Numbered from the stretch's first letter, positions 2-19,379 are shown. The stretch is 24,000 bases of DNA from Kineosporia sp. NBRC 101731 (GCF_030269305.1 NZ_BSTC01000004.1:227963-251962), one strand, 5' to 3'. The notes: generated by a model from the sequence alone, not told the origin. Translations and numbers: made by a program.

Positions 2-655
2 GGTGGATCCGATCCGGAGACCGTCGACGAGGTGAAGGTGCGGGGGCCCCTGACACTGCGCACGGGCCGGCGGGCGGTCACCGCCGCCGACTTCGAGCAA
101 CTGAGTCTGGAGAGCAGCCCCCGGCTGGCCCGAGCGCGCTGTGCGGTGCCCGAGACCGACGGTGGGCCCGTGCGGCTGCTGCTGGTGCCCCGCCGGCCAC
201 CGGCCCCGGGCCTGCGGAACGTGGACGAGTTCGCTCTCGAGGAAGAGCTTCTGGAGGAAGTCACCGCCGGTCTGGAACCGCGCCGGCTGGTCGGCTCACG
301 CATCGAGCTGACCACCCCGTACTACATCGGGGTCGCCGTGGAGGTGTCGGTGCGGGCCGCCACCGGTCACAGCGCGGCCGCGGTGCGTCAGACGGCCGAG
401 GAGACGCTGCGCACCTGGCTGGACCCGCTGCACGGGGGTGCCGACCGCAGCGGCTGGCCCTTCGACCGACATCTCACCGGGTCCGCCGTCGTGCACCGGC
501 TGGAAGGGCTGGCCGGTGTCGCGAACATCGAGGACGTGCGCCTGTACGAGTACGACCTGCGCCGGGGGGAACGGGTCGGCCCGGTCCGGGACGTCCTGAC
601 GCTGGACGCCGACAGCCTGTTCCTGCCGGGTGAGCTGATGGTGGTGGCCCGATGA
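2..655 (+). CDS. Baseplate J/gp47-like baseplate wedge protein of a contractile injection system (Afp11/Cis11-like). Only the C-terminal part is present; the 5' end lies outside the window.
   Basis: The frame is open from nt 2 (GGSDPETVDEVKVRGPLTLRTGRRAVTAADFEQL...). The '...RAVTxxDFExL' block and the following beta-rich C-terminus are typical of baseplate J family C-termini. The GTG at 32 in the track is probably internal. The stop overlaps the next gene's start as ATGA (652-655). Third-position GC bias is strong. Confidence 0.8.
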   Translation, partial: GGSDPETVDEVKVRGPLTLRTGRRAVTAADFEQLSLESSPRLARARCAVPETDGGPVRLLLVPRRPPAPGLRNVDEFALEEELLEEVTAGLEPRRLVGSRIELTTPYYIGVAVEVSVRAATGHSAAAVRQTAEETLRTWLDPLHGGADRSGWPFDRHLTGSAVVHRLEGLAGVANIEDVRLYEYDLRRGERVGPVRDVLTLDADSLFLPGELMVVAR

Positions 656-1659
656 GTGCGCCGGCCCCCGGCTGGCTCGCCCGGCAACTGCCGGTCGTCA
701 TGCAGCAGGACGACTTCACGGTGCGCTTCCTCGCGATCTTCGAGGACCTGGCGGACACCCTGCTGCACTCGGTGGGTTCGGTGGCCGAGGCGGCCGATCC
801 CACCGTCGCGCCCGCCCCGATGGTGCCCTGGCTCGGGAGCTGGATCGCCGGCCCCGTCGATCCCGCCGCCGGCACCCACCCGCTGCGCGACCGGGACTGG
901 CTGCGAGCGCAGTCCCGGGCGCTGGGGGCCCGGGGCACCCGGGCCGGTCTGGAGCAGTGGCTGTCCCTGCTGTCCGGCGGGCGCCCGGTCGAGATCATCG
1001 ACGGCGGTGGCGTCTACCGCGAGGGTCAGGCCCCGGAGGGAGCGACCGGCTGGGTCCAGGTCCGGATGCCACTGGCCGGCGATGTGGATGCGCAGCAGGT
1101 CGTCGCCCTGATCGAGGACGAGGTGCCCATCGGCGTGAGGGTCGAGCTCCTGGTGATTCCGGACGAGCCCTCCGGGGTGCCCCGGCCCCGGGACGCTCAG
1201 GACGATGCCGATCACACCGATCACACCGCTGACGCCGATCTCCGGGAGCCGATGCCGGGCGGCCCGTACTTCTGGGACGGCGGGGACGAGGACGTCTTTC
1301 CGCCCCTGTGGGAGGAAGCGATCCCGGCCCCGGAAGTCACGGAGAACACGCAGGAGGCCCCGCTGTCCGGTGCGCTGCGCCGGCTTCCGGGAACGGGCGG
1401 ACGGGCCGTGCGCGCCGGGCGCTTGTGCCCGGAGTGCGCCGAGCCCAACGCCTTCGGATCACTCACGTGCCTCCGATGTGCATCGGTGTTGCGGGTTCCC
1501 CGTCCGGTGGCGGAGCCGGTTCCGGAGCCCGAACCGGAGCCCTTGTGGGACGACGAGGACTGGCTGCCACAGCGGCGGACCCGGCCCGTCGTCGTCGCGA
1601 CGGCCGGGCTGCTCCTGCTTTTGAGCCTCATCCTGTTCCTCACGTACCTCCTGCGCTGA
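652..1659 (+). CDS. P2 gpI-like baseplate/tail protein (Afp12/Cis12-like), residues ~1-170. It carries a C-terminal extension: an acidic/Pro-rich linker, a CxxC-x13-CxxC zinc ribbon (nt 1426-1479) and a C-terminal TM helix (nt ~1588-1653).
   Basis: The N-terminus WLARQLPVVMQQDDFTVRFLAIFEDLADTLL matches the usual start of tail-protein-I family members. ATGA coupling to the baseplate J gene gives the canonical J-I order. The extension contains CPECAEPNAFGSLTCLRCASVL, then PEPEPEP, then RRTRPVVVATAGLLLLLSLILFLTYLLR at the very C-terminus. Confidence 0.7.
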   Translation: MSAPAPGWLARQLPVVMQQDDFTVRFLAIFEDLADTLLHSVGSVAEAADPTVAPAPMVPWLGSWIAGPVDPAAGTHPLRDRDWLRAQSRALGARGTRAGLEQWLSLLSGGRPVEIIDGGGVYREGQAPEGATGWVQVRMPLAGDVDAQQVVALIEDEVPIGVRVELLVIPDEPSGVPRPRDAQDDADHTDHTADADLREPMPGGPYFWDGGDEDVFPPLWEEAIPAPEVTENTQEAPLSGALRRLPGTGGRAVRAGRLCPECAEPNAFGSLTCLRCASVLRVPRPVAEPVPEPEPEPLWDDEDWLPQRRTRPVVVATAGLLLLLSLILFLTYLLR

Positions 1660-2518
1660 GCCTCACCGGCGCCAGGGTGGTCCTGGCGCTCGTCACCGTC
1701 TCCACCATCACGCAGGCACCGCTGTAGCCGCGGCTGCGGAAGTAGATCGCGTATATGCCGGGCGGCAGATCCGCGCTCCAGTCGTGGCCGCTGATCGTGA
1801 CCGGGTACGTGGTCCGGCCCGTGCGGGCGCTCGCGCCGCTGAGGTTCTCGCGCGAGAGACCACGCACGAACGCCGTGATCGGTGAGGAGGCACCGCCGTC
1901 CAGGAACACCGTGCCCTGGACCCGTACGGGGCCCGGGGCGCGACGCATGCGGGCCACATTGGCATCCCGGTCGGCGGTGTCGACGATGGCCGCCAGGGTG
2001 CGCGCCCGCGGTCCGGCCGACGCGGCCGTGAACACTTTCACCCCCGCCACGACCATCAGCAGCAGCGCGACCAGCAACACGGCGATCACGGCGACCACCC
2101 GAGGACGCCGCGTTGCCGGTCGCGCAGAACCGCTCGGGGGTTGTGGTCGGTCGGTGAACGGCGGGCGGCGAACCGTCAGCTGGGAATCGGCGACCGGCAC
2201 CGGAGCACCCGAGGTCTGCGCGGTCAGGGTCCAGAGGTACCGGCCGGGCAACGTTCCGGCCGGAGGGGTCAGGTAGACGAAGACCTCAGCCGTGTTGTGA
2301 CCCGGCAACTGCAGGACCTGGGCCGGCGGGCACCAGGACGACGGCAGGCCCCGGGCGAGCAGAACAGCCCGCACCTCCTCGCCCGTCAGGTTCTGGACGG
2401 TTCCACGCACGACCACCGTCTGGCCGGCGTCGACCGTCCCTTCCTGAGCCGTCACCCTCAGCGTGGCGCGGTCACCTGACCAGGACGCTGCCTGCCGGTC
2501 TGTTGTGGGGCTGCTCAT
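1640..2518 (-). CDS. Bitopic membrane protein, paralog 3: N-terminal Ig-like (CARDB/NEW3-like) domain, one TM helix, C-terminal carboxypeptidase-regulatory-like beta-sandwich.
   Basis: I place the start at the internal ATG at 2518 (MSSPTTDRQ...), not at track position 2614. A GGAAGGAG Shine-Dalgarno lies just upstream. This ATG overlaps the upstream gene's stop as ATGA (2515-2518). The TM is RRPRVVAVIAVLLVALLLMVVAGV. The C-terminal 'VRVQGTVFLDG...LPPGIYAIYFRSRGY' is a CarboxypepD_reg-like pattern. Confidence 0.7.
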   Translation of the reverse strand: MSSPTTDRQAASWSGDRATLRVTAQEGTVDAGQTVVVRGTVQNLTGEEVRAVLLARGLPSSWCPPAQVLQLPGHNTAEVFVYLTPPAGTLPGRYLWTLTAQTSGAPVPVADSQLTVRRPPFTDRPQPPSGSARPATRRPRVVAVIAVLLVALLLMVVAGVKVFTAASAGPRARTLAAIVDTADRDANVARMRRAPGPVRVQGTVFLDGGASSPITAFVRGLSRENLSGASARTGRTTYPVTISGHDWSADLPPGIYAIYFRSRGYSGACVMVETVTSARTTLAPVRLSAGGT

Positions 2519-4401
2519 GAAACTCCTTCCGACGACGTTTCGGTGGGTGTGGCCGGTGGGGCGGTCGTCGCCGACGGCCGGACGCAGATGAAGACGTCGT
2601 GCCACCAGGAGCACCCGGCCGGGCCCGACACGCCGTCCTCCCCCGGGGGACCGCTGGGACCCGGCGGACCGGAAGGCCCTACGGCGCCGTCCGTTCCGTC
2701 AGCACCGTCGCTGCCGTTCGTCCCGTCGGTGCCGTCACTCCCGCCGGTGCCGGCCGTGCCGTCGGTGCCGTTCGTTCCGTCCGTGCCGTCCGTTCCGTTC
2801 GTGCCGTCGATGCCGTTGGTTCCGTCCCGGCCGTTCGTACCGTCCGCACCCGGGTCGCCCGTCGTCCCCGCACCACCCCGGTCACCGCGAGGGCCGGGTT
2901 CTCCGGTCGCACCCGGCGGAAGCCGCAGTCCGCTCGCGGGATCCGGGGCCAGTCGTAAGGTCACGTCGGCGGGCACCCCCGGCTCCAGCGTCACGGTGGC
3001 CTGAGCCGGGCGGTATCCCTCCTTGGCGGCGACCACCGTGTAGCGGGCCGGGGCAAGCACGTCCTTCGCCACGAATACCGCGGTACCCGGCAGTTGCTCC
3101 GCCTGCCTCACCCCCGCTCCCGGAGCCGCGGTTCCCTCACCCAGCTGAAGATTCACCTCGGCACCCGCCGGGATGTCCATGTCGAGGGTCACGACGACCG
3201 TTCCCAGCGCCAGTCCCGGCACCATCGGATTCAGCGACGTGCCTTCACCACCGGTCGCGGTGACCGGTGCCGCATCCTCCGGGTCGGTCGCCTGGGGGTA
3301 CCAGATCGGATGCGGACCCGTGCCTTCGAGCCGGATCAGGTACTCCCCGGACGGAACCTCCATCTGCCAGGTGCCGTCCGCACCGAAATCCTTGGTGCTG
3401 ACCACCGGGACGGCGGTGTCATCGAGCCGGTACGCGGAGACGACCGCACCGGTGGGCAGTCCCCGGCCCCGACGTCCGCCGCTGCTCACCGGCGCCGCAC
3501 GTCCGGACCGGACCGACTCGGGCTCCGGCTGCACCGTTCCCTTCAGGAAGCAGGGGCAGTCGGCCGAACCGTCCGCCGCTCCCCCGACGTGCGGATCGCT
3601 GACCTCGTCCAGTTGATCGGCGGTATTGGCCTGTTCCACGTCGTGCTGGGTGAAGATCGCGCCCACGGTGACGGCGGCCACGCCGAGCACCAGCGCCAGG
3701 ACCACCAGACTCGCCCCCAGCGACAACGCGGCCCGGCTGATCCGCGGTTTCTGCAGGAAAGCTCCCTGGGCCAGCGGCCCCTCGACAGGAACCCCGATCC
3801 GGCGTTCCTGATCCGTGCGCGCATCCGCATACACCGAGAACATCCGGGGCGCCGGCATACCCGTCCAGGGCCGGCGCCGCCGGACCGTCACGTCGATGCG
3901 GGTCTGCTCCCCCGGCGCCAGGTCCAGCCGCTCCGAGCTGAAATCGAAGGTGAGCCGGGCCTCGTCGTCCACTCCCACCAGAGGGCTGCCCACGGTCGTG
4001 TTGCCGGCGTTCTCGGCCCTCAGCCGGAAACCGGCACGACGGCCTCCGGACACCAGCGGCGGCCTGACCGTCAGCAGCAGGCGCTCCCGGGCGGGCACGT
4101 GCACCTCGACCGGCTGCAGCCAGCATTCCTGGCGGCCACCGACCTCCTGGACCTGCACCGTCAGGGGATGGGAGCCGGCGGGAAACGTCTCCGGCAGGAG
4201 CACCCGCACCGTCAGCTCGCGCGATTCACCGGGAAAGAGCTCGAACTCAGGAACGCCGACCTCGACCCAGTCCGGGTCGGCCCCCAGAATGCGCACCGAG
4301 AACGCGGAAATGGTGTCCCGGACGTTCTGCACCCGCAGGGTCATCTCACCCGGCGAGCCGGCCCGGTGCACGATCTGCCCGGGTGAGAACTCGGTGATCA
4401 T
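2515..4401 (-). CDS. Bitopic membrane protein, paralog 2: two Ig-like N-terminal domains, a TM helix, two carboxypeptidase-regulatory-like domains and a C-terminal collagen-like triple-helix repeat.
   Basis: This is a 628-aa ORF with strong GC3 bias. The start ATG at 4401 overlaps the upstream stop (ATGA, 4398-4401). The TM is KPRISRAALSLGASLVVLALVLGVAAVTVGAIF, followed by an acidic segment, which implies N-in/C-out. 'LKGTV...GEYLIRLEGTG' and 'ARYTVVAAKEGYRPAQATVTLEPG' are beta-sandwich motifs. There are 32 uninterrupted G-X-Y triplets near the C-terminus. Confidence 0.8.
   Translation of the reverse strand: MITEFSPGQIVHRAGSPGEMTLRVQNVRDTISAFSVRILGADPDWVEVGVPEFELFPGESRELTVRVLLPETFPAGSHPLTVQVQEVGGRQECWLQPVEVHVPARERLLLTVRPPLVSGGRRAGFRLRAENAGNTTVGSPLVGVDDEARLTFDFSSERLDLAPGEQTRIDVTVRRRRPWTGMPAPRMFSVYADARTDQERRIGVPVEGPLAQGAFLQKPRISRAALSLGASLVVLALVLGVAAVTVGAIFTQHDVEQANTADQLDEVSDPHVGGAADGSADCPCFLKGTVQPEPESVRSGRAAPVSSGGRRGRGLPTGAVVSAYRLDDTAVPVVSTKDFGADGTWQMEVPSGEYLIRLEGTGPHPIWYPQATDPEDAAPVTATGGEGTSLNPMVPGLALGTVVVTLDMDIPAGAEVNLQLGEGTAAPGAGVRQAEQLPGTAVFVAKDVLAPARYTVVAAKEGYRPAQATVTLEPGVPADVTLRLAPDPASGLRLPPGATGEPGPRGDRGGAGTTGDPGADGTNGRDGTNGIDGTNGTDGTDGTNGTDGTAGTGGSDGTDGTNGSDGADGTDGAVGPSGPPGPSGPPGEDGVSGPAGCSWWHDVFICVRPSATTAPPATPTETSSEGVS
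2617..2904 (-). repeat. Collagen-like G-X-Y coding repeat (32 triplets, mostly GTD/GTN/GSD/GPP) inside the 2515..4401 CDS.
   Basis: The translation reads GEPGPRGDRGGAGTTGDPGADGTNGRDGTNGIDGTNGTDGTDGTNGTDGTAGTGGSDGTDGTNGSDGADGTDGAVGPSGPPGPSGPPGEDGVSGPAG. At the DNA level this appears as degenerate 9/18-bp repeats (ccgtc/ggtgccgtt...). Confidence 0.9.
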
Positions 4402-6119
4402 CCGGGATCACCTGCACAGGTCGCCGAACTCGCCGAGAACGGCACGGAATAGAAGTTCGCCCGCGCCGGGAGCACATGCAGACGACAGGCGTGCATCGCC
4501 TGCCCGCCCACGGTCATCGTGAGGTCGTAGTAGCCGGGTGCCAGCAGCCCCGTCAGACGGATCTGGCTCTCCCACCCGCCGCCGGCGGCGGGCCGGGACG
4601 GAAACTCCCCCGGCCCGGAGCCGCCCGCCGGGTCGCCGGGTCCGGCGCCTTGTGTGCCTTCCTCCCCCTTACCCGTCGGCGTCCTGGCCGGCAGCCAGAC
4701 CGGGCCGGCCGGCCGGGCCGGATCGGACCGGGCACCCTCGAACGCACCCGTCCCCGCACCGGCAGAACGACCGGCGGAAGAACCGGACAGCGCTGTCGCA
4801 GAGGGTTTCCGGGCCGAGGAAGGGATCGGCCCGCAGGCCGGGACCGGTGTCGGGGCCACCGTGACACCCGGGGACCTCCCGGCCTCCGGGGTTCCCCCGG
4901 TATCGACGTCCGCCGAGGGCTGCTTCGGCGCCGACAGCCGGGCGGTGACGTGCACGGCCGGCGTGGCGGATCCGTCCGGGTTCCGCAGCCTCACCGTCAG
5001 CTGAGCCGGACGCCCCGGCAGCCGCCCCCGGACCCGGCAGGACTCCTGGTCCACGGCGGCCCGCAGCCTCGCATTCCCGTTCCAAGGCGGTGCGAGAACG
5101 ATCTCGTAGCGGGCGGGAAAGGTGTCCGGCAGCCAGAACCGGCCCTGGCTGTCACTGGCGGTCCGGTAGGTCGTGGTGGCCTCGGTACAGCGCGACCGCG
5201 GCCGCACCGCAGGGTCCTGGCTGCACGCCAGCACCTTCACCCCGGACACCGGCGAACCGTCCACCTCCGAGACGACCAGTCCGGACAGTGTGAGCGCCAC
5301 ATCCAGAACGTCACGAGGCCCCGGACCCGTCCGGAACCCGTCGGGTACCGCGACCGGCGGTGCCTCCGGGCGGACGAAGGCACGCAGCCCGAGATATCCC
5401 AGGGTGCCCCAGATCGCCAGCACCAGAACGAGGACCACCGCGAACACCAGCCCGTGACCCAGCACGGGCCGCTGACGGAAGGTGACCCGCACGTCCTGGT
5501 GCAGCTCCTCGTCCAGCATCGGGTGCCCGGGCGTGACCGACGCGGCCACGACGCGTACATCGGCCAGGTGCTCACGGACAGCGCCGAGCAGACGCCAGGG
5601 GGCGGTGACCTCCACCCGGCAGACCTTCGTCTGCCACGGTTCGATCATGGCCTCGTCCGGCTCGAACGTCATGGAGACCCCGTCGGGGAGGTCGACCTCG
5701 CGGGGATGAACCAGCAGAGCGGTGTTCCCGCGGTTGGCGACCGTCATCGGGAAGGACACGCGACGGGTGCCCATGCGTACGCAGGGGCGGACACCGGCCG
5801 TCAGCGCGGGACGCGCGGCCACGTCGACCTGCAGGCCGGCCTGATGCTCCCTCTCGGTCGCGGTCGCCCGCACCACCACATCGACGCGGTGCCGGCCGGC
5901 CGGTACCTGGGCCGGCAGTTGCACCTGCAGCGGTAACCGCCGCCGCTCACCGGGAAACAGCGTGGGGGTGCTCTCCAGGCGCACCGTGGCCCCGGAGAGA
6001 CCGGTCAGGTCGATCTCGACCGCGTCGATCACATCGTCGGTGTTGACGACGTCGATCAGCACCTCCCCCGGAACCTCCGGTTCCAGGCTGACCTCGTCGT
6101 TGACCAGCCGGACCTCCAT
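4398..6119 (-). CDS. Bitopic membrane protein, paralog 1: two Ig-like N-terminal domains, a TM helix, a carboxypeptidase-regulatory-like domain, a long low-complexity linker and a C-terminal beta-sandwich.
   Basis: I place the start at the internal ATG at 6119 (MEVRLVNDEVSLEPE...), residue 201 of the 773-aa track ORF. The upstream 200 codons are an Arg/Gly-rich shadow of the DUF4255 gene, which is in another frame. The start overlaps the DUF4255 stop by 1 nt (TGATG). The N-terminal domains align by eye with paralog 2 (V.N..D.I.A...LFPGE.R.L...V.LP...PAG.H). The TM is VLGHGLVFAVVLVLVLAIWGTLGYLGL. Confidence 0.75.
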   Translation of the reverse strand: MEVRLVNDEVSLEPEVPGEVLIDVVNTDDVIDAVEIDLTGLSGATVRLESTPTLFPGERRRLPLQVQLPAQVPAGRHRVDVVVRATATEREHQAGLQVDVAARPALTAGVRPCVRMGTRRVSFPMTVANRGNTALLVHPREVDLPDGVSMTFEPDEAMIEPWQTKVCRVEVTAPWRLLGAVREHLADVRVVAASVTPGHPMLDEELHQDVRVTFRQRPVLGHGLVFAVVLVLVLAIWGTLGYLGLRAFVRPEAPPVAVPDGFRTGPGPRDVLDVALTLSGLVVSEVDGSPVSGVKVLACSQDPAVRPRSRCTEATTTYRTASDSQGRFWLPDTFPARYEIVLAPPWNGNARLRAAVDQESCRVRGRLPGRPAQLTVRLRNPDGSATPAVHVTARLSAPKQPSADVDTGGTPEAGRSPGVTVAPTPVPACGPIPSSARKPSATALSGSSAGRSAGAGTGAFEGARSDPARPAGPVWLPARTPTGKGEEGTQGAGPGDPAGGSGPGEFPSRPAAGGGWESQIRLTGLLAPGYYDLTMTVGGQAMHACRLHVLPARANFYSVPFSASSATCAGDPG

Positions 6120-6754
6120 CAGGCCCCGTCGCGCTGCCGTTGCCGCGAGGCCCCGAACCAGCCGGGGCGACGCCCGGTGTCCGTCGCGCTGCCCGACCGG
6201 CGCAGCGGCGCCACGGTGGTCTCCACCCGCCGGACCGGCGCCGCGACGCGCTGCGGGCGGTCCAGGGTAACGGCGGTCGTGGCGACGAGAACCAGAGAGG
6301 GGCGCAGCTTTCCCCCCAGACCACCCCAAAGATCCCGGCCTCTGACCTGTTCCGGATCCGCCAGGGCGATGTTCACCTTGCCCGTGATCTCCCCGCCCTC
6401 CGTGTCCCCGTCCAGCACCGGTGTCCGCAGCAGACCTCGCACGGCATCCCCCAGGAGCCGGTGCTCCTCCCGCACCCCGCCACCCCAGGCACTCAGGAGG
6501 TACGAGAACGAGACCACGGGCGCCGGCCGGTCCCGCACGACCACCCCGTTGGTGTCGCGGTACGGACCGGTCACCGCGGGTTGCACTGCCGCCCGGGCAA
6601 TGTCGAAAAGAAAAAGGTTCAGTGTCGGCCGCGTGAGAGACGTACCCCAGGTGCCGTCCGGGCTCTCGAACGAGACGTCCCCGTCCTCCTCGGGCAGCGG
6701 CACCTCTTCTTGCAACCACGACTTCAGCGTGCTTTCCAGCGCGGACAGCGGCAC
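6119..6754 (-). CDS. DUF4255 / Pvc16-N-like protein (Afp16/Cis16-type tail terminator/cap of contractile injection systems).
   Basis: This is a 211-aa ORF. It has a GTG start with a GGGGAGGA Shine-Dalgarno 4 nt upstream. MPLSALESTLKSWLQEE...PTLNLFLFDIARA...SFSYLLSAWG fits the DUF4255 pattern as I remember it. It sits next to other CIS genes. Confidence 0.7.
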   Translation of the reverse strand: MPLSALESTLKSWLQEEVPLPEEDGDVSFESPDGTWGTSLTRPTLNLFLFDIARAAVQPAVTGPYRDTNGVVVRDRPAPVVSFSYLLSAWGGGVREEHRLLGDAVRGLLRTPVLDGDTEGGEITGKVNIALADPEQVRGRDLWGGLGGKLRPSLVLVATTAVTLDRPQRVAAPVRRVETTVAPLRRSGSATDTGRRPGWFGASRQRQRDGA

Positions 6755-18637: not shown

Positions 18638-18736
18638 GCGAACCTCGACATCGGCGCGACCGGCCGCGCAGCAGCTACGGATGCTCCACGCACCTACGCT
18701 CCCGTGCTCACGTCCGTCCATCTATGTCGGTGTCCA

Positions 18737-18849
18737 CCACGTCGGACAGCCACGTCGGACAGCCACGTCCGACAGCCACGTCCGACAGCCACGTCCGACA
18801 GCCACGTCCGACAGCCACGTCCGACAGCCACGTCCGACAGCCACGTCCG
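18737..18849. repeat. Non-coding tandem repeat: 13-bp unit CCACGTC(G/C)GACAG, 8 full copies plus a partial ninth.
   Basis: Units start at 18737, 18750, 18763, 18776, 18789, 18802, 18815 and 18828, with a partial unit at 18841. The first two copies carry G at position 8 and the rest carry C. A degenerate copy lies just upstream (~18724). Confidence 0.95.
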
Positions 18850-18856
18850 TAGCCCT

Positions 18857-18936
18857 ACTGATGCCACAACAACCTGATGCCACAACGGCCTGGCGCCACA
18901 ACAACCTGGCGCCACAACGGCCTGATGCCACAGCGA
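18857..18936. repeat. Non-coding tandem repeat: 16-bp unit CCTG(AT/GC)GCCACAAC(AA/GG), 5 copies.
   Basis: Units are at 18857, 18873, 18889, 18905 and 18921. The variable positions are combined in a patterned way (AT-AA, AT-GG, GC-AA, GC-GG, AT-..). Confidence 0.95.
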
Positions 18937-19035
18937 CCGGCCTGGGTGCCGTCTCCTCTGGAGCCCCACGGGAATCACCCACAAATCGCGGCACTCGGAG
19001 CGCGGAAGCTCCCATGAGGGAACACTTATCGATTG

Positions 19036-19077
19036 TGTACACATGGTACATCCGGTACCGGATGTACCGTTTGTACA
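19036..19077. promoter_or_regulatory. A 42-bp near-perfect palindrome abutting the antitoxin start codon. It is a likely toxin-antitoxin operator.
   Basis: The perfect 24-bp core GGTACATCCGGTACCGGATGTACC (19045-19068) is flanked symmetrically by TGTACA (19036-19041 and 19072-19077). The last A is the A of the ATG. Confidence 0.6.
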
Positions 19078-19379
19078 TGATTGATCTGCCCCGTCTGTCC
19101 ATCCGTGACGTCCGCGAGCGGCTGGCCGACGTGGTGGACGAGGCCTGCCACGACCGACCCACGGTGATCACCCGCCGGGGCAGGCCTGTGGCGGCCCTCG
19201 TCCCGATCGACATCCTGCGGCGCTACCTCGAACTCGAAGAACGCGAGATCAACCGCATCATCGATGAGCGGATCTGCGGGCACCCGCAGAGCGAGGGTGA
19301 GACCGAGGACAGTGGCGCCCCGGCCGGAGCAGTCCCACTGGAGACCGTACTGCGCGAAACAGCCTCTCGTGCAGAGTGA
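19077..19379 (+). CDS. Type II antitoxin, Phd/YefM family.
   Basis: MIDLPRLSIRDVRERLADVVDEACHDRPTVITRRGRPVAALVPID matches the Phd/YefM N-terminal pattern. I chose the internal ATG. There is no Shine-Dalgarno, so the mRNA may be leaderless. Confidence 0.8.
   Translation: MIDLPRLSIRDVRERLADVVDEACHDRPTVITRRGRPVAALVPIDILRRYLELEEREINRIIDERICGHPQSEGETEDSGAPAGAVPLETVLRETASRAE

Follow-up and report, generated by a model that had tools for sequence, protein, structure and literature searches.

Three Ig-like, predicted single-span membrane proteins chained to the cap gene of an actinobacterial contractile injection system: a candidate membrane adaptor set

No trans-envelope complex is known for the cytoplasmic contractile injection systems (CIS) of Gram-positive bacteria. 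The CIS cluster of Streptomyces coelicolor encodes three proteins with a single transmembrane segment (TM) and a common N-terminus, Sco4256-4258 (Casu et al. 2023, PMC10066040), which were named 'CIS-associated effectors' on the basis of genetics and cryo-ET. Each of them is toxic in E. coli, and the triple mutant phenocopies a CIS deletion; its particles still assemble with a normal appearance, and their lumen is mostly empty (about 85% versus about 3% in the wild type) (PMC10066040). Sco4256 has also been described as a 'putative toxin' present in all three particle purifications, with homologs in Actinobacteria, Cyanobacteria and Chloroflexi that consist of a chaperone-like N-domain (pilus-chaperone-like by HHpred in Sco4256), a TM and a variable C-domain, that in about one third of cases have a lectin or pore-forming toxin-like domain at the C-terminus, and that are rare outside eCIS regions (Vladimirov et al. 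2023, PMC10020575). It is annotated 'Hydrolytic', with homologs listed in Cellulomonas, Frankia and Ilumatobacter; a ricin or pore-forming lectin domain is present in Sco4257/4258, and the papers call the C-domain variable. A further membrane protein of this system, CisA (Sco4242), was proposed only in 2025 as a membrane adaptor needed for CIS firing (Casu et al. 2025); it too is toxic in E. coli and was detected by mass spectrometry, yet it is no particle component.

Here we analyze a stretch of 24,000 nucleotides from Kineosporia sp. NBRC 101731 (GCF_030269305.1 NZ_BSTC01000004.1:227963-251962), hereafter the window, whose locus is the accessory end of an actinobacterial CIS (Table 1). Overlapping stop and start codons link four minus-strand genes, cis16 followed by three that we call A, B and C: the TGA of the cap gene (6121-6119) and the ATG of gene A at 6119 have an A in common (TGATG), and an ATGA combines the stop of A with the start of B at 4398-4401 and the stop of B with the start of C at 2515-2518. 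All three junctions are as the original prediction described them. Shine-Dalgarno-like motifs lie 5' of the starts of cis16 (GGGGAGGA), B (AGGTGA) and C (GGAAGGAG). The identity of the first gene as a DUF4255/Afp16-like tail terminator is confirmed by a match of its product to Pfam PF14065 (Pvc16_N; E 7e-28; 98 bits against a cutoff of 27; profile positions 4-178 of 180), and its N-terminus aligns with that of a Kineosporia ortholog; Cis16 of S. coelicolor is a cap hexamer (PMC12237407). The context of cis16 is that of a CIS locus, with an AAA+/WHD gene upstream (Pfam AAA, E 1.6e-26; WHD, E 2e-9) and Cis11 and Cis12 convergent downstream, and the cis15-cis16 order is that of Kineosporia L001. 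A deaminase-like ORF adjoins cis15 and is another candidate payload.

Table 1. Features of the locus, in positions of the window
Feature	Coordinates	Strand	Description
Cis11 C-terminal part (baseplate J-like)	32..655	+	cut by window start; TIGR02243, E 1.6e-29
Cis12-like baseplate wedge protein	652..1659	+	335 aa; convergent to A, B and C; TIGR02242
Paralog C	1640..2518	-	292 aa; one Ig domain (NPCBM_assoc, aa 30-101), Arg-rich stretch, TM aa 141-159, then one all-beta C-terminal domain of ~90 aa
Paralog B	2515..4401	-	628 aa; two Ig domains aa 1-217, juxtamembrane FLQKPRISR motif, TM helix aa 232-250, CPC motif, two beta-sandwiches aa 284-485, collagen-like repeat, C-terminal knot with Cys, PT-rich tail
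Collagen-like GXY repeat of B	2614..2925	-	aa ~493-596; Pfam Collagen, E 3.8e-14
Paralog A	4398..6119	-	573 aa; two Ig domains aa 1-~215, TM aa 219-237
Paralog A ectodomain			~330 aa, 6 Cys
cis16 (Pvc16_N/DUF4255 tail terminator, cap)	6119..6754	-	211 aa, GTG start; PF14065
cis15 (AAA+ ATPase, winged-helix domain)	7668..9704	-	678 aa; upstream of cis16

A, B and C are predicted to be type II bitopic membrane proteins. Each contains exactly one strong hydrophobic helix and none begins with an N-terminal hydrophobic segment, which bears out the earlier claim of one TM each and no signal peptide. Their N-termini match the Ig-like Pfam families NEW3/NPCBM_assoc or FixG_C (for C, PF10633, E 3.9e-7, 30.6 bits against a cutoff of 24.4), and the Ig motif that had been noticed by eye corresponds to the invariant or near-invariant residues N26, L55-F56-P57, P70 and G76 of the family alignments. 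In the AlphaFold2 model of B (id m8f6895de05a4), aa 1-217 form two beta-sandwiches (pLDDT about 94), aa 223-260 a helix and aa 284-485 further beta-sandwiches; for the C-terminal domain of C an all-beta structure is predicted at low confidence. The collagen-like GXY repeat of B, which the original prediction overlooked, is also detected with NCBIfam as Scl/Lcl-type collagen-like adhesin stretches, and its DNA is a 9/18/27-bp tandem repeat (Tandem Repeats Finder, rows at 2682-2844).

A BLASTP match between A and B (E 8e-10 over 228 aa) makes these two, which are 31% identical, clear paralogs, and the same program finds no similarity of C to either. By hhalign, C aligns with the first Ig domain of the B group (E 1.7e-9) and with the third-gene (C) group of other genomes (E 2.5e-30). 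Hence, of the claim of three paralogs with a shared architecture, the Ig-TM-beta plan stands, and C is a relative by profile only. Compared as orthogroups, A and B align at E 4e-52 and C and B at E 4e-33, values suggesting that the three orthogroups diverged long ago.

Profile comparisons assign the three proteins to the 'hydrolytic protein'/COG1470 family that is linked to CIS in Streptomyces. A profile built from 29 N-domains matches P0018, a 'hydrolytic protein' of a Streptomyces CIS cluster, with E 1.6e-42; three-sequence HMMs (window, L001 and L002) reach it with E 6e-30 for B and 6e-21 for A, and BLASTP of P0018 against B proteins of the loci gives values down to 2e-25. Homologs of B include P0001-P0017. 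P0018, which matches ASH/Cep192/HYDIN Pfam families, sits like P0031 in a Streptomyces CIS cluster. By name, architecture and locus this appears to be the Sco4256-4258 family, the link running via P0018 and the literature rather than via the Sco4256 sequence. The triplicated arrangement, which had been thought undescribed, was accordingly already in print in 2023 for the family to which the profiles assign the window proteins (PMC10066040). Both sets comprise three paralogs in a CIS cluster beside ATPase and cap genes, each with a chaperone/ASH-like Ig N-module, one TM and a variable C-terminal domain, and in both cases the homologs are largely confined to CIS loci of Actinobacteria and some Chloroflexi. 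They differ in several respects: the C-domains of the window are of the CarboxypepD_reg/PEGA type, with a collagen-like repeat and without a ricin or pore-forming lectin domain; the N-termini of Sco4256-4258 are 'highly similar', whereas A and B share only the identity given above and C is a single-Ig, profile-level relative; and A, B and C, unlike Sco4256-4258, are joined to cis16 by overlapping codons. In the two Streptomyces genomes examined (L123 and L124) the gene is present in a single copy, divergent from a LuxR gene.

Within Actinomycetota, the order cap, A, B, C is preserved in at least 120 species genomes. All 120 genome matches of a family-specific pattern were true family members, most of them adjoining a Pvc16 and/or AAA+ gene, so the association with CIS claimed in the original prediction is a tight one. 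An A-type gene lies upstream of B in every one of the 80 loci with room for it, and a third family member 3' of B in at least 63 of 77; Pvc16 adjoins A in 59 of 67 loci, with AAA+ or Pvc16 in 3 more. A search of viral contigs for the family returned no matches. The recurrence of the same gene order in independent genomes indicates that the arrangement is more than chance. It could be argued that A, B and C are ordinary COG1470-type wall- or S-layer-associated surface proteins, neighbors of CIS genes without a mechanistic link to them, as NEW3, CarboxypepD_reg, SdrD_B, SpaA and collagen are generic surface-protein domains and Pvc16 is missing beside gene A in 5 to 8 of the 67 loci. However, Pvc16 or AAA+ adjacency is found in about 90% of loci, spanning Actinomycetes and Acidimicrobiia, the codon overlap ties gene A to the cap gene, and in locus L044 the genes for Cis12, a zinc-ribbon/TM (Zn-TM) protein, Pvc16, A, B and C follow one another on one strand. 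Moreover, S. coelicolor genetics tie the family to CIS (PMC10066040), and the rarity of homologs outside eCIS regions (PMC10020575) points the same way; the surface-protein explanation is thus disfavored, and we consider it very improbable.

The family-wide data are also informative about topology. A single TM at about aa 225 is seen in 254 of 264 members and an N-terminal hydrophobic segment in only 3 of them, and the net charge of the TM flanks is +2.4 to +3.0 on the N-terminal side versus 0 to 0.6 on the C-terminal side. Cysteine parity differs between the two halves: ectodomains with cysteines have an even number in 44 cases versus an odd one in 6, and N-domains an odd number in 74 versus an even one in 29. 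The even bias of the C-terminal parts suggests that they fold outside the cytoplasm, and together the charge and parity statistics predict an N-in/C-out topology, lending support at the level of prediction to the earlier proposal of Ig domains inside and beta-sandwiches outside. A domain census of 57 sampled members recovered CarboxypepD_reg in 48, SdrD_B in 46, SpaA in 39 and PEGA in 36. The CarboxypepD_reg ectodomains claimed for these proteins are therefore well founded for the family and less so for the window, where A scores 28.4 bits, under the Pfam cutoff of 32.3, and B and C have no match to this family. No enzyme or toxin domain was detected among the 57 sampled non-Streptomyces members or in A, B and C (Pfam, and NCBIfam for the window), nor any ricin or lectin match in the same proteins. 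A few family members match phage_tail_N, Ig_J or Phage_tube_C, and the ectodomains reach lengths of up to 2143 aa. In domain content, the ectodomains look like wall-spanning stalks rather than toxins.

These observations bear on the reading published for Sco4256-4258, under which A, B and C would be injected or released membrane effectors: the N-module would serve to load the proteins into or onto the CIS, contraction would expel them, and the TM would enter the membrane of the producer or a neighbor, with damage to the envelope. One support is the position of the genes. Canonical eCIS loci had been said to encode tail fibers here, but in Afp and PVC loci the fiber gene (13) comes after gene 12 and the slot after gene 16 holds payload genes, so the placement of A, B and C after gene 16 favors the effector reading. 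The combination of a conserved N-module with a variable C-terminus is likewise the layout of polymorphic effectors. To this are added the loss of lumen density, the toxicity and the CIS-deletion phenocopy reported for Sco4256-4258 (PMC10066040), as well as the recovery of Sco4256 with purified particles and the lectin or pore-forming C-domains of its homologs (PMC10020575). CisA, however, is likewise toxic in E. coli and was likewise detected by mass spectrometry, so these two findings do not discriminate between the readings. Against the effector reading stand the toxin-free census, with stalk-like ectodomains of up to about 2100 aa, the even cysteine counts that indicate extracytoplasmic folding, and the order of the A, B and C orthogroups, fixed across two classes, which across the loci compared is unlike that of polymorphic effector genes. 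Although they occupy the same slot as eCIS payloads (Afp17/18, Pvc effectors), A, B and C show neither a recognizable toxin or enzyme domain nor a disordered N-terminal leader; B is folded from residue 1 in the AlphaFold2 model (pLDDT 94), which argues against a disordered packaging leader. Furthermore, other lumen cargo has been reported in Streptomyces, namely the tape-measure-related Sle1 and DUF4157-type proteins (PMC13277306), and L124 has a DUF4157/eCIS_core gene. We regard the effector reading as the main alternative, possible but doubtful, for the window proteins; were the family to consist of plain effectors, the locus would be an ordinary homolog of a described gene set.

The fold of the N-module suggests a further alternative, that A, B and C are membrane-anchored assembly factors whose PapD-like double-Ig module, at the inner face of the membrane, chaperones or nucleates CIS subunits (for example for cap, tube or cargo loading), the ectodomain merely positioning or regulating the protein. 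Foldseek retrieves the pilus chaperones FimC, PapD, CsuC and YadV with the model of B at E about 3e-7 to 9e-7, in line with the HHpred result for Sco4256 (PMC10020575); the genes have the assembly ATPase gene cis15 as a neighbor and are coupled in translation to the cap gene, and a role of this kind would account for the empty tubes of the triple mutant without a cargo function. Nevertheless, the particles of that mutant look normal (PMC10066040), the likeness is that of a generic Ig fold, with ASH/Hydin-type Ig domains on top of the Foldseek matches and whole-model TM-scores of 0.14-0.22, and the large conserved ectodomains are left unexplained. We therefore hold an assembly function to be unlikely.

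The second membrane element of the locus is Cis12 itself (TIGR02242, 63.5 bits against a cutoff of 51.85), whose C-terminal extension comprises a zinc ribbon at aa 259-276 and, at aa 313-331, a tail-anchor TM. The ribbon, of the form CPxCxxPN...CxRC, aligns with aa 220-244 of CisA at E 0.005, and by this criterion the extension resembles the cytoplasmic part of CisA, with a zinc ribbon followed by a TM, although unlike CisA it has no ectodomain. The Zn-TM module is fused to Cis12 in the window and in L001 and is a separate gene in L002 and L044; its fusion points to Cis12 as the attachment site. The window contains no stand-alone CisA. A, B and C were themselves considered as CisA homologs and rejected: with aa 1-310 of CisA, the part before its C-terminal domain (aa 310-468), as the query (from eLife supplement 14) the best BLASTP match has E 0.17 over 14 aa, and the architectures differ, so the doubt originally voiced about such homology was justified. 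The N-region of CisA is largely disordered, with a zinc ribbon before the TM, whereas in A, B and C folded Ig domains continue to the TM and there are no CxxC pairs; its C-terminal domain is solute-binding-like, whereas their ectodomains are transthyretin-like; and its gene is immediately downstream of cis11 and cis12, whereas theirs lie 3' of cis16 and run toward cis12 from the other strand.

For this clade, three observations tilt the balance somewhat from the effector model toward a docking or sensing model: the domain census, the conserved A-B-C triad and the tail anchor of Cis12. We propose, with a probability of about one half, that A, B and C form a set of adaptors that reside in the membrane, span the wall and serve a CIS docked at the membrane. 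They would sit in the cytoplasmic membrane with the double-Ig (PapD/ASH-like) module against its inner face, where it may be the contact to the CIS particle; the ectodomains, chains of transthyretin-like beta-sandwiches with a collagen-like, triple-helical stalk in B, would extend into the cell wall or across it. With the tail-anchored Cis12/zinc-ribbon protein as a CisA-like tether they might anchor the baseplate at the membrane and link firing to the state of the envelope, and the stop/start overlaps might keep the stoichiometry of cap, A, B and C fixed. Against this proposal speaks that S. coelicolor CIS particles are free-floating and seldom seen at the membrane. The three proteins would accordingly act as a trans-envelope adaptor or fiber-equivalent rather than as injected toxins. 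Like the Afp13/Pvc13 fibers, they have a presumed machine-binding N-part and a variable, fibrous distal part, and B alone is fiber-like in its collagen-like repeat, a feature of trimeric fibers. Those fibers, however, are soluble, without a TM, and encoded after gene 12, whereas A, B and C have a TM and follow cis16, and Pfam and NCBIfam scans revealed no homology to Afp13/Pvc13. Contractile machines held at a membrane by TM-bearing accessory or baseplate proteins are likewise seen in the T6SS (TssJLM) and in the thylakoid-anchored Anabaena CIS. In the present case the host is monoderm and the putative anchors are the tail-anchored Cis12 and three Ig-TM proteins, for which the same scans gave no homology to TssJ, TssL or TssM.

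What is new here is the conserved cap-A-B-C order, the N-in/C-out statistics, the toxin-free ectodomain census and the zinc ribbon with tail anchor in Cis12, which bear on the way in which the cytoplasmic CIS of Gram-positive bacteria make contact with the membrane and on what these systems deliver. Across Actinomycetota the Streptomyces 'effector' family emerges as a fixed triad of predicted N-in bitopic proteins with stalk-like, toxin-free ectodomains, and Cis12, a baseplate protein, can itself carry the CisA-type zinc-ribbon/TM module as a direct fusion. Given the stalk-like outer parts of their relatives in the window, the published role of Sco4256-4258 is worth a second look. It is conceivable, albeit as a more tentative extension of the proposal, that Sco4256-type proteins are non-effectors and that A, B and C form a hetero-oligomeric wall-spanning fiber bundle whose double-Ig feet grip the CIS alongside the Cis12/CisA-like tether. 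If so, the empty tubes in Streptomyces would be a secondary loading or docking defect, and the bundle together with the tether would be the long-sought trans-envelope complex of monoderm CIS, a functional Gram-positive counterpart of the T6SS membrane complex.

The first 10.7 kb of the window (G+C ~71%) represent one end of a CIS locus, in which a minus-strand series formed by a deaminase-like ORF, cis15, cis16, A, B and C converges on the plus-strand Cis11 and Cis12-like genes (see table); the remainder, with MFS and EamA transporters, a GntR/aminotransferase regulator and KatG/FurA, is unrelated housekeeping. As originally predicted, the stop and start codons of cis16, A, B and C overlap successively (TGATG at 6119, ATGA at 4398-4401 and ATGA at 2515-2518), and Shine-Dalgarno-like motifs lie ahead of the cis16, B and C starts. 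The 3' ends of the convergent C (stop 1640-1642) and Cis12 (stop 1657-1659) genes overlap by 20 nt, so that no space is left for an intergenic terminator; the matching overlap in L001, the corresponding locus of Kineosporia sp. J2-2, is 57 nt. The 914 bp separating cis15 from cis16 hold an opposite-strand DUF5648 gene whose product has a twin-arginine-like signal, RRSVMSMGVTATVAAGL, and in L001 the two cis genes are 10 nt apart with no gene between. The ORF directly upstream of cis15, which displays an HAE...CxxC motif and lacks conservation in L001, is a candidate genuine toxin payload. Elsewhere, a DUF6578 gene without evident link to the CIS locus lies between MFS and EamA-type transporter genes, and two tandem repeats overlap the 5' part of an ORF, upstream of its antitoxin-like part.

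Coordinates of features in the window
Feature	Position	Strand	Length	Evidence or remark
Cis11, C-terminal part	32-655	+		TIGR02243, E 1.6e-29
Cis12-like gene	652-1659	+		TIGR02242, 63.5 bits, cutoff 51.85
Zinc ribbon to tail-anchor TM of Cis12-like gene	1426-1659	+		past the TIGR02242 domain
C	1640-2518	-	292 aa	
B	2515-4401	-	628 aa	
GXY repeat of B	2614-2925	-		9/18/27-bp tandem DNA repeat
Tandem Repeats Finder rows in GXY repeat	2682-2844			
A	4398-6119	-	573 aa	
cis16, cap gene	6119-6754	-		Pvc16_N, 98 bits, cutoff 27
DUF5648 protein	6984-7652	+	222 aa	E 2e-18
cis15, AAA+/WHD ATPase	7668-9704	-		
Deaminase-like ORF	9779-10684	-	301 aa	weak OTT_1508-like deaminase match, 25.5 bits, cutoff 27
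DUF6578 protein	11938-12348	-		E 2.8e-25
ORF with Phd/YefM-type antitoxin-like C-terminal part	18681-19379	+		
13-bp tandem repeat	18737-18849			8.7 copies, near-perfect, 99% matches
16-bp repeat	18858-18932			4.7 copies

A, B and C each contain one strong hydrophobic helix with Arg/Lys residues before it, lack an N-terminal hydrophobic segment, and match the NEW3/NPCBM_assoc or FixG_C Ig families of Pfam at their N-termini. In an AlphaFold2 model of B (17 homologs), two beta-sandwiches (aa 1-217, pLDDT ~94) are followed by a helix (aa 223-260) that begins only ~6 residues past the last strand, by beta-sandwiches at aa 284-485 and by a collagen-like region without order; the double-Ig module is predicted to be folded and to sit flush against the membrane. 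The single architecture claimed for the three proteins is indeed seen, and their claimed paralogy also holds, though for C at the profile level only. A and B are related in BLASTP searches (E 8e-10, 31% identity over 228 aa), whereas no BLASTP similarity of C to either is detectable. Profile-profile comparisons unite the A and B groups (E 4e-52) and relate the Kineosporia-type C-group to the third-gene group of other genomes (E 2.5e-30) and to the first Ig domain of the B group (E 1.7e-9), which places C, as a single-Ig member, in the A/B superfamily.

The ectodomains, predicted to be of the CarboxypepD_reg type, conform to this firmly at the level of the family but not for each protein of the window. 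Pfam searches of 57 full-length members recovered CarboxypepD_reg in 48, SdrD_B in 46, CarbopepD_reg_2 in 45, SpaA in 39, EMC7_beta-sandw in 38, PEGA in 36, Phage_tube_C in 13, Ig_J in six and phage_tail_N in two, and no toxin or enzyme domains. In the window itself, CarboxypepD_reg is sub-threshold in A, and B has a PEGA match together with a strong collagen triple-helix repeat that the original prediction overlooked. Pfam finds nothing in the C-terminal 106 aa of C, and the weak single-sequence AlphaFold2 model of this protein (mean pLDDT 56), with Foldseek matches to CnaB, pilin and transhydroxylase-type sandwiches at E >= 1e-3, is only compatible with a CarboxypepD_reg-like fold. Median ectodomain lengths are 514 aa for A and 606 aa for B, with a maximum of 2143 aa, and a sortase signal is essentially absent (1 of 175 ectodomains), implying that they are not LPXTG wall-anchored. 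Among the 57 members scanned the Pfam Collagen match is confined to B of the window; a cruder GXY-run pattern also flags A of L001 and B of another comparison locus, L010, among 175 complete ectodomains, and the two closest homologs of B (P0001 and P0002) have shorter versions of the repeat.

Several features of the family bear on its topology. Across the 254 members that have their N-terminus intact and show a TM peak, net charge is +2.4 to +3.0 over the 15 residues preceding the TM and 0 to +0.6 over the 15 following it; K+R favours the N-side in 153 members and the C-side in 20, with 81 ties. A hydrophobic N-terminal segment is present in only 3 of 264 proteins. An even number of cysteines is a signature of exported, disulfide-bonded proteins in Actinobacteria. 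Cys-containing ectodomains have an even number in 44 cases and an odd one in six (six cysteines in A and four in B of the window), and among N-modules, the N-terminal Ig parts, the number is odd in 74 and even in 29. The charge bias and cysteine parity support a predicted N-in/C-out topology for the family, as does the fact that a folded 220-aa N-domain lacking a signal peptide would be hard to export. We reject an N-out arrangement in view of the lack of a signal peptide, the folded ~220-aa N-domain, and the positive-inside and Cys-parity statistics.

The nearest homologs of B come from Kineosporia and related metagenomes (45-51% identity). In L001 the AAA+ and Pvc16_N genes are followed by those for 672-aa, 515-aa and 301-aa proteins, which converge on a 333-aa Cis12-like gene, Cis11 and gp25 in the layout of the window; in the more distant contig L002, Pvc16_N is followed by 758-aa, 845-aa and 2100-aa proteins converging on Tail_P2_I. 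Two dynamin-like GTPase genes adjoin the gp25, Cis11 and Cis12 genes of L001, and one more Ig-TM family member is found there at a distance of ~9 kb from the triad (L001 16481-19866 and 20679-21548). With aa 1-219 of B as query, exhaustive phmmer searching recovered 1915 clusters (50% identity) at E <= 1e-3 and 359 at E <= 1e-10, with the match almost always covering residues 1 to ~215 of the target. A degenerate DNA pattern built on invariant residues (L39 G40 D42 P43 W45 ... L55 F56 P57 ... P70 ... G76) matched the window, L001 and L002, along with at least 120 species-representative genomes, among them Acidimicrobiales, Nocardioides, Cellulomonas, Nakamurella, Jatrophihabitans, Frankiales, Pseudonocardiales, Kineosporiaceae, Jiangella, Egicoccus and two Chloroflexota, and had no matches in viral contigs; by HMM, all of the matches listed are true family members. 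In the 8-kb loci around the matches listed, an A-type gene lies ahead of B in all 80 loci with room for it. Of 67 cases, 59 have Pvc16 adjoining A (50 sharing its strand and nine divergent), and three of the other eight have an AAA+ or fused call; of 77, at least 63 have B followed by a third family member. Intergenic distances are mostly -8 to +20 nt. That these genes are mere neighbours of the CIS locus is very unlikely.

The triad is a real and carefully made observation, and it is the homolog set of a known family; the suggestion that the arrangement was undescribed is not borne out, as this family has been described and experimentally studied. A profile of 29 N-modules retrieves P0018, a 'hydrolytic protein'/COG1470 family protein of a Streptomyces CIS cluster, at E 1.6e-42 (word-indexed search, 6 matches), as do HMMs from the window, L001 and L002 only (E 6e-30 for B and 6e-21 for A), and BLASTP with P0018 recovers locus B proteins down to E 2e-25. 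Its pairwise BLASTP alignment with A is collinear over 278 aa and non-significant (E 13), so that profiles are needed to reveal this homology. P0018 is one of more than 880 Streptomyces proteins in its family, matches the ASH, Cep192 and HYDIN families of Pfam, and lies, like its S. formicae relative, at the edge of a CIS cluster adjoining sheath, AAA+, Pvc16_N and LuxR genes. None of the 120 matches listed out of 880 in Streptomyces is named S. coelicolor, and the last link that places the window proteins in the Sco4256 family is drawn from the published taxon list together with name, architecture and locus. In two Streptomyces loci (L123, 5620-8784; L124, 5717-8926) the gene after Pvc16_N encodes a ~1060-aa protein with Tricorn, PD40 and CLIPPER domains, which is not of the Ig-TM type, and the lone Ig-TM family member lies beyond the LuxR gene on the other strand.

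Vladimirov et al. 2023 (PMC10020575) report that Sco4256 has homologs in Cellulomonas, Frankia, Ilumatobacter, Catenulispora, Amycolatopsis, cyanobacteria and Chloroflexi as well as in 90% of 105 Streptomyces class IId loci, and that these seldom lie outside eCIS regions; in HHpred searches the first Sco4256 domain resembles periplasmic pilus chaperones, a TM comes next, and about one third of homologs continue into a toxin or lectin domain. In agreement with that result, Foldseek with our B model recovers the PapD, FimC, CsuC and YadV chaperones besides ASH/Hydin-type Ig domains. Casu et al. 2023 (PMC10066040) termed the three uncharacterised proteins Sco4256-4258, encoded within the S. coelicolor CIS cluster, CIS-associated effectors: each is toxic in E. 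coli, and their triple deletion phenocopies CIS deletion, the particles still assembling but showing an empty tube lumen in ~85% of cases against ~3% in wild type. Purified particles contained Sco4256 (NP_628430.1, 'Hydrolytic') (PMC10020575). The original prediction, which expected fibre genes at this position, was incorrect with respect to the Afp/PVC gene order. Those loci have the fibre as gene 13, behind gene 12, and payload genes downstream of gene 16. Both this payload-slot position and the empty-lumen phenotype constitute real evidence for the effector role, whereas E. coli toxicity and detection by mass spectrometry are equally true of CisA, which is absent from the particle; for the present clade we regard the published effector role as possible but less likely than an adaptor role. 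A chaperone or assembly function of the PapD-like module could reconcile both the phenotype and the position, and appears less probable still.

CisA (Sco4242), the membrane adaptor for CIS firing, is encoded after the baseplate genes; its cytoplasmic N-region is largely unstructured, and its C-terminal domain, beyond a TM, is solute-binding-like. Earlier doubt about homology to it was well placed: none of A, B and C is similar to CisA aa 1-310, taken from an AlphaFold3 file in the eLife supplement (best E 0.17), and we reject their being CisA paralogs. A resemblance emerged instead in the Cis12-like protein of the window, which runs past its TIGR02242 domain into a zinc ribbon (CPECAEPNAFGSLTCLRC, aa 259-276), an acidic, proline-rich spacer and a TM (aa 313-331) with just 4 residues beyond. 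CisA has CPWCSTPNRPDRHYCARC at aa 223-240 and then its TM at 285-305, and the two zinc ribbons align at E 0.005; the extension thus resembles CisA aa 223-305 but is without the CisA ectodomain. Immediately ahead of the CisA TM, Vladimirov et al. had observed a segment that is rich in Cys and probably binds zinc, for which they suggested baseplate attachment (PMC10020575). In the window and L001, Cis12 is fused to the Zn-TM module, which is a separate small gene directly after Cis12 in L002 and is likewise separate in L044 (Microthrixaceae), in which Cis12, Zn-TM, Pvc16, A, B and C lie on one strand. By a Rosetta-stone argument, this pattern of fusion and separation, seen in four loci with a short motif, is suggestive of a CisA-type tether that works with Cis12, and of a baseplate that in this lineage may be tail-anchored to the cytoplasmic membrane.

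For this clade we prefer, with a probability of roughly one half, an adaptor role for A, B and C over the published effector role. This preference stems from their anciently diverged orthogroups being maintained in a fixed order, as in structural genes, from stalk-like and toxin-free ectodomains, from C-terminal parts marked by extracytoplasmic folding, and from an N-terminus that is not a disordered packaging leader. Furthermore, other cargo exists, namely the tape-measure-related Sle1 and DUF4157 proteins reported in Streptomyces (PMC13277306), a DUF4157/eCIS_core gene in L124 and the deaminase-like ORF of the window. As adaptors, the Ig modules would bind the CIS and the ectodomains would span the wall, and together with the tail-anchored Cis12 the three proteins may keep the machine docked and make its firing depend on the state of the envelope. 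What is new here is the long transthyretin-like or collagen-like ectodomains, the A, B, C triad, which across Actinomycetota is fixed and coupled to the cap gene, and the fusion of Cis12 to a CisA-like tail anchor; these three features sharpen the question of cargo versus membrane adaptor and render it testable.
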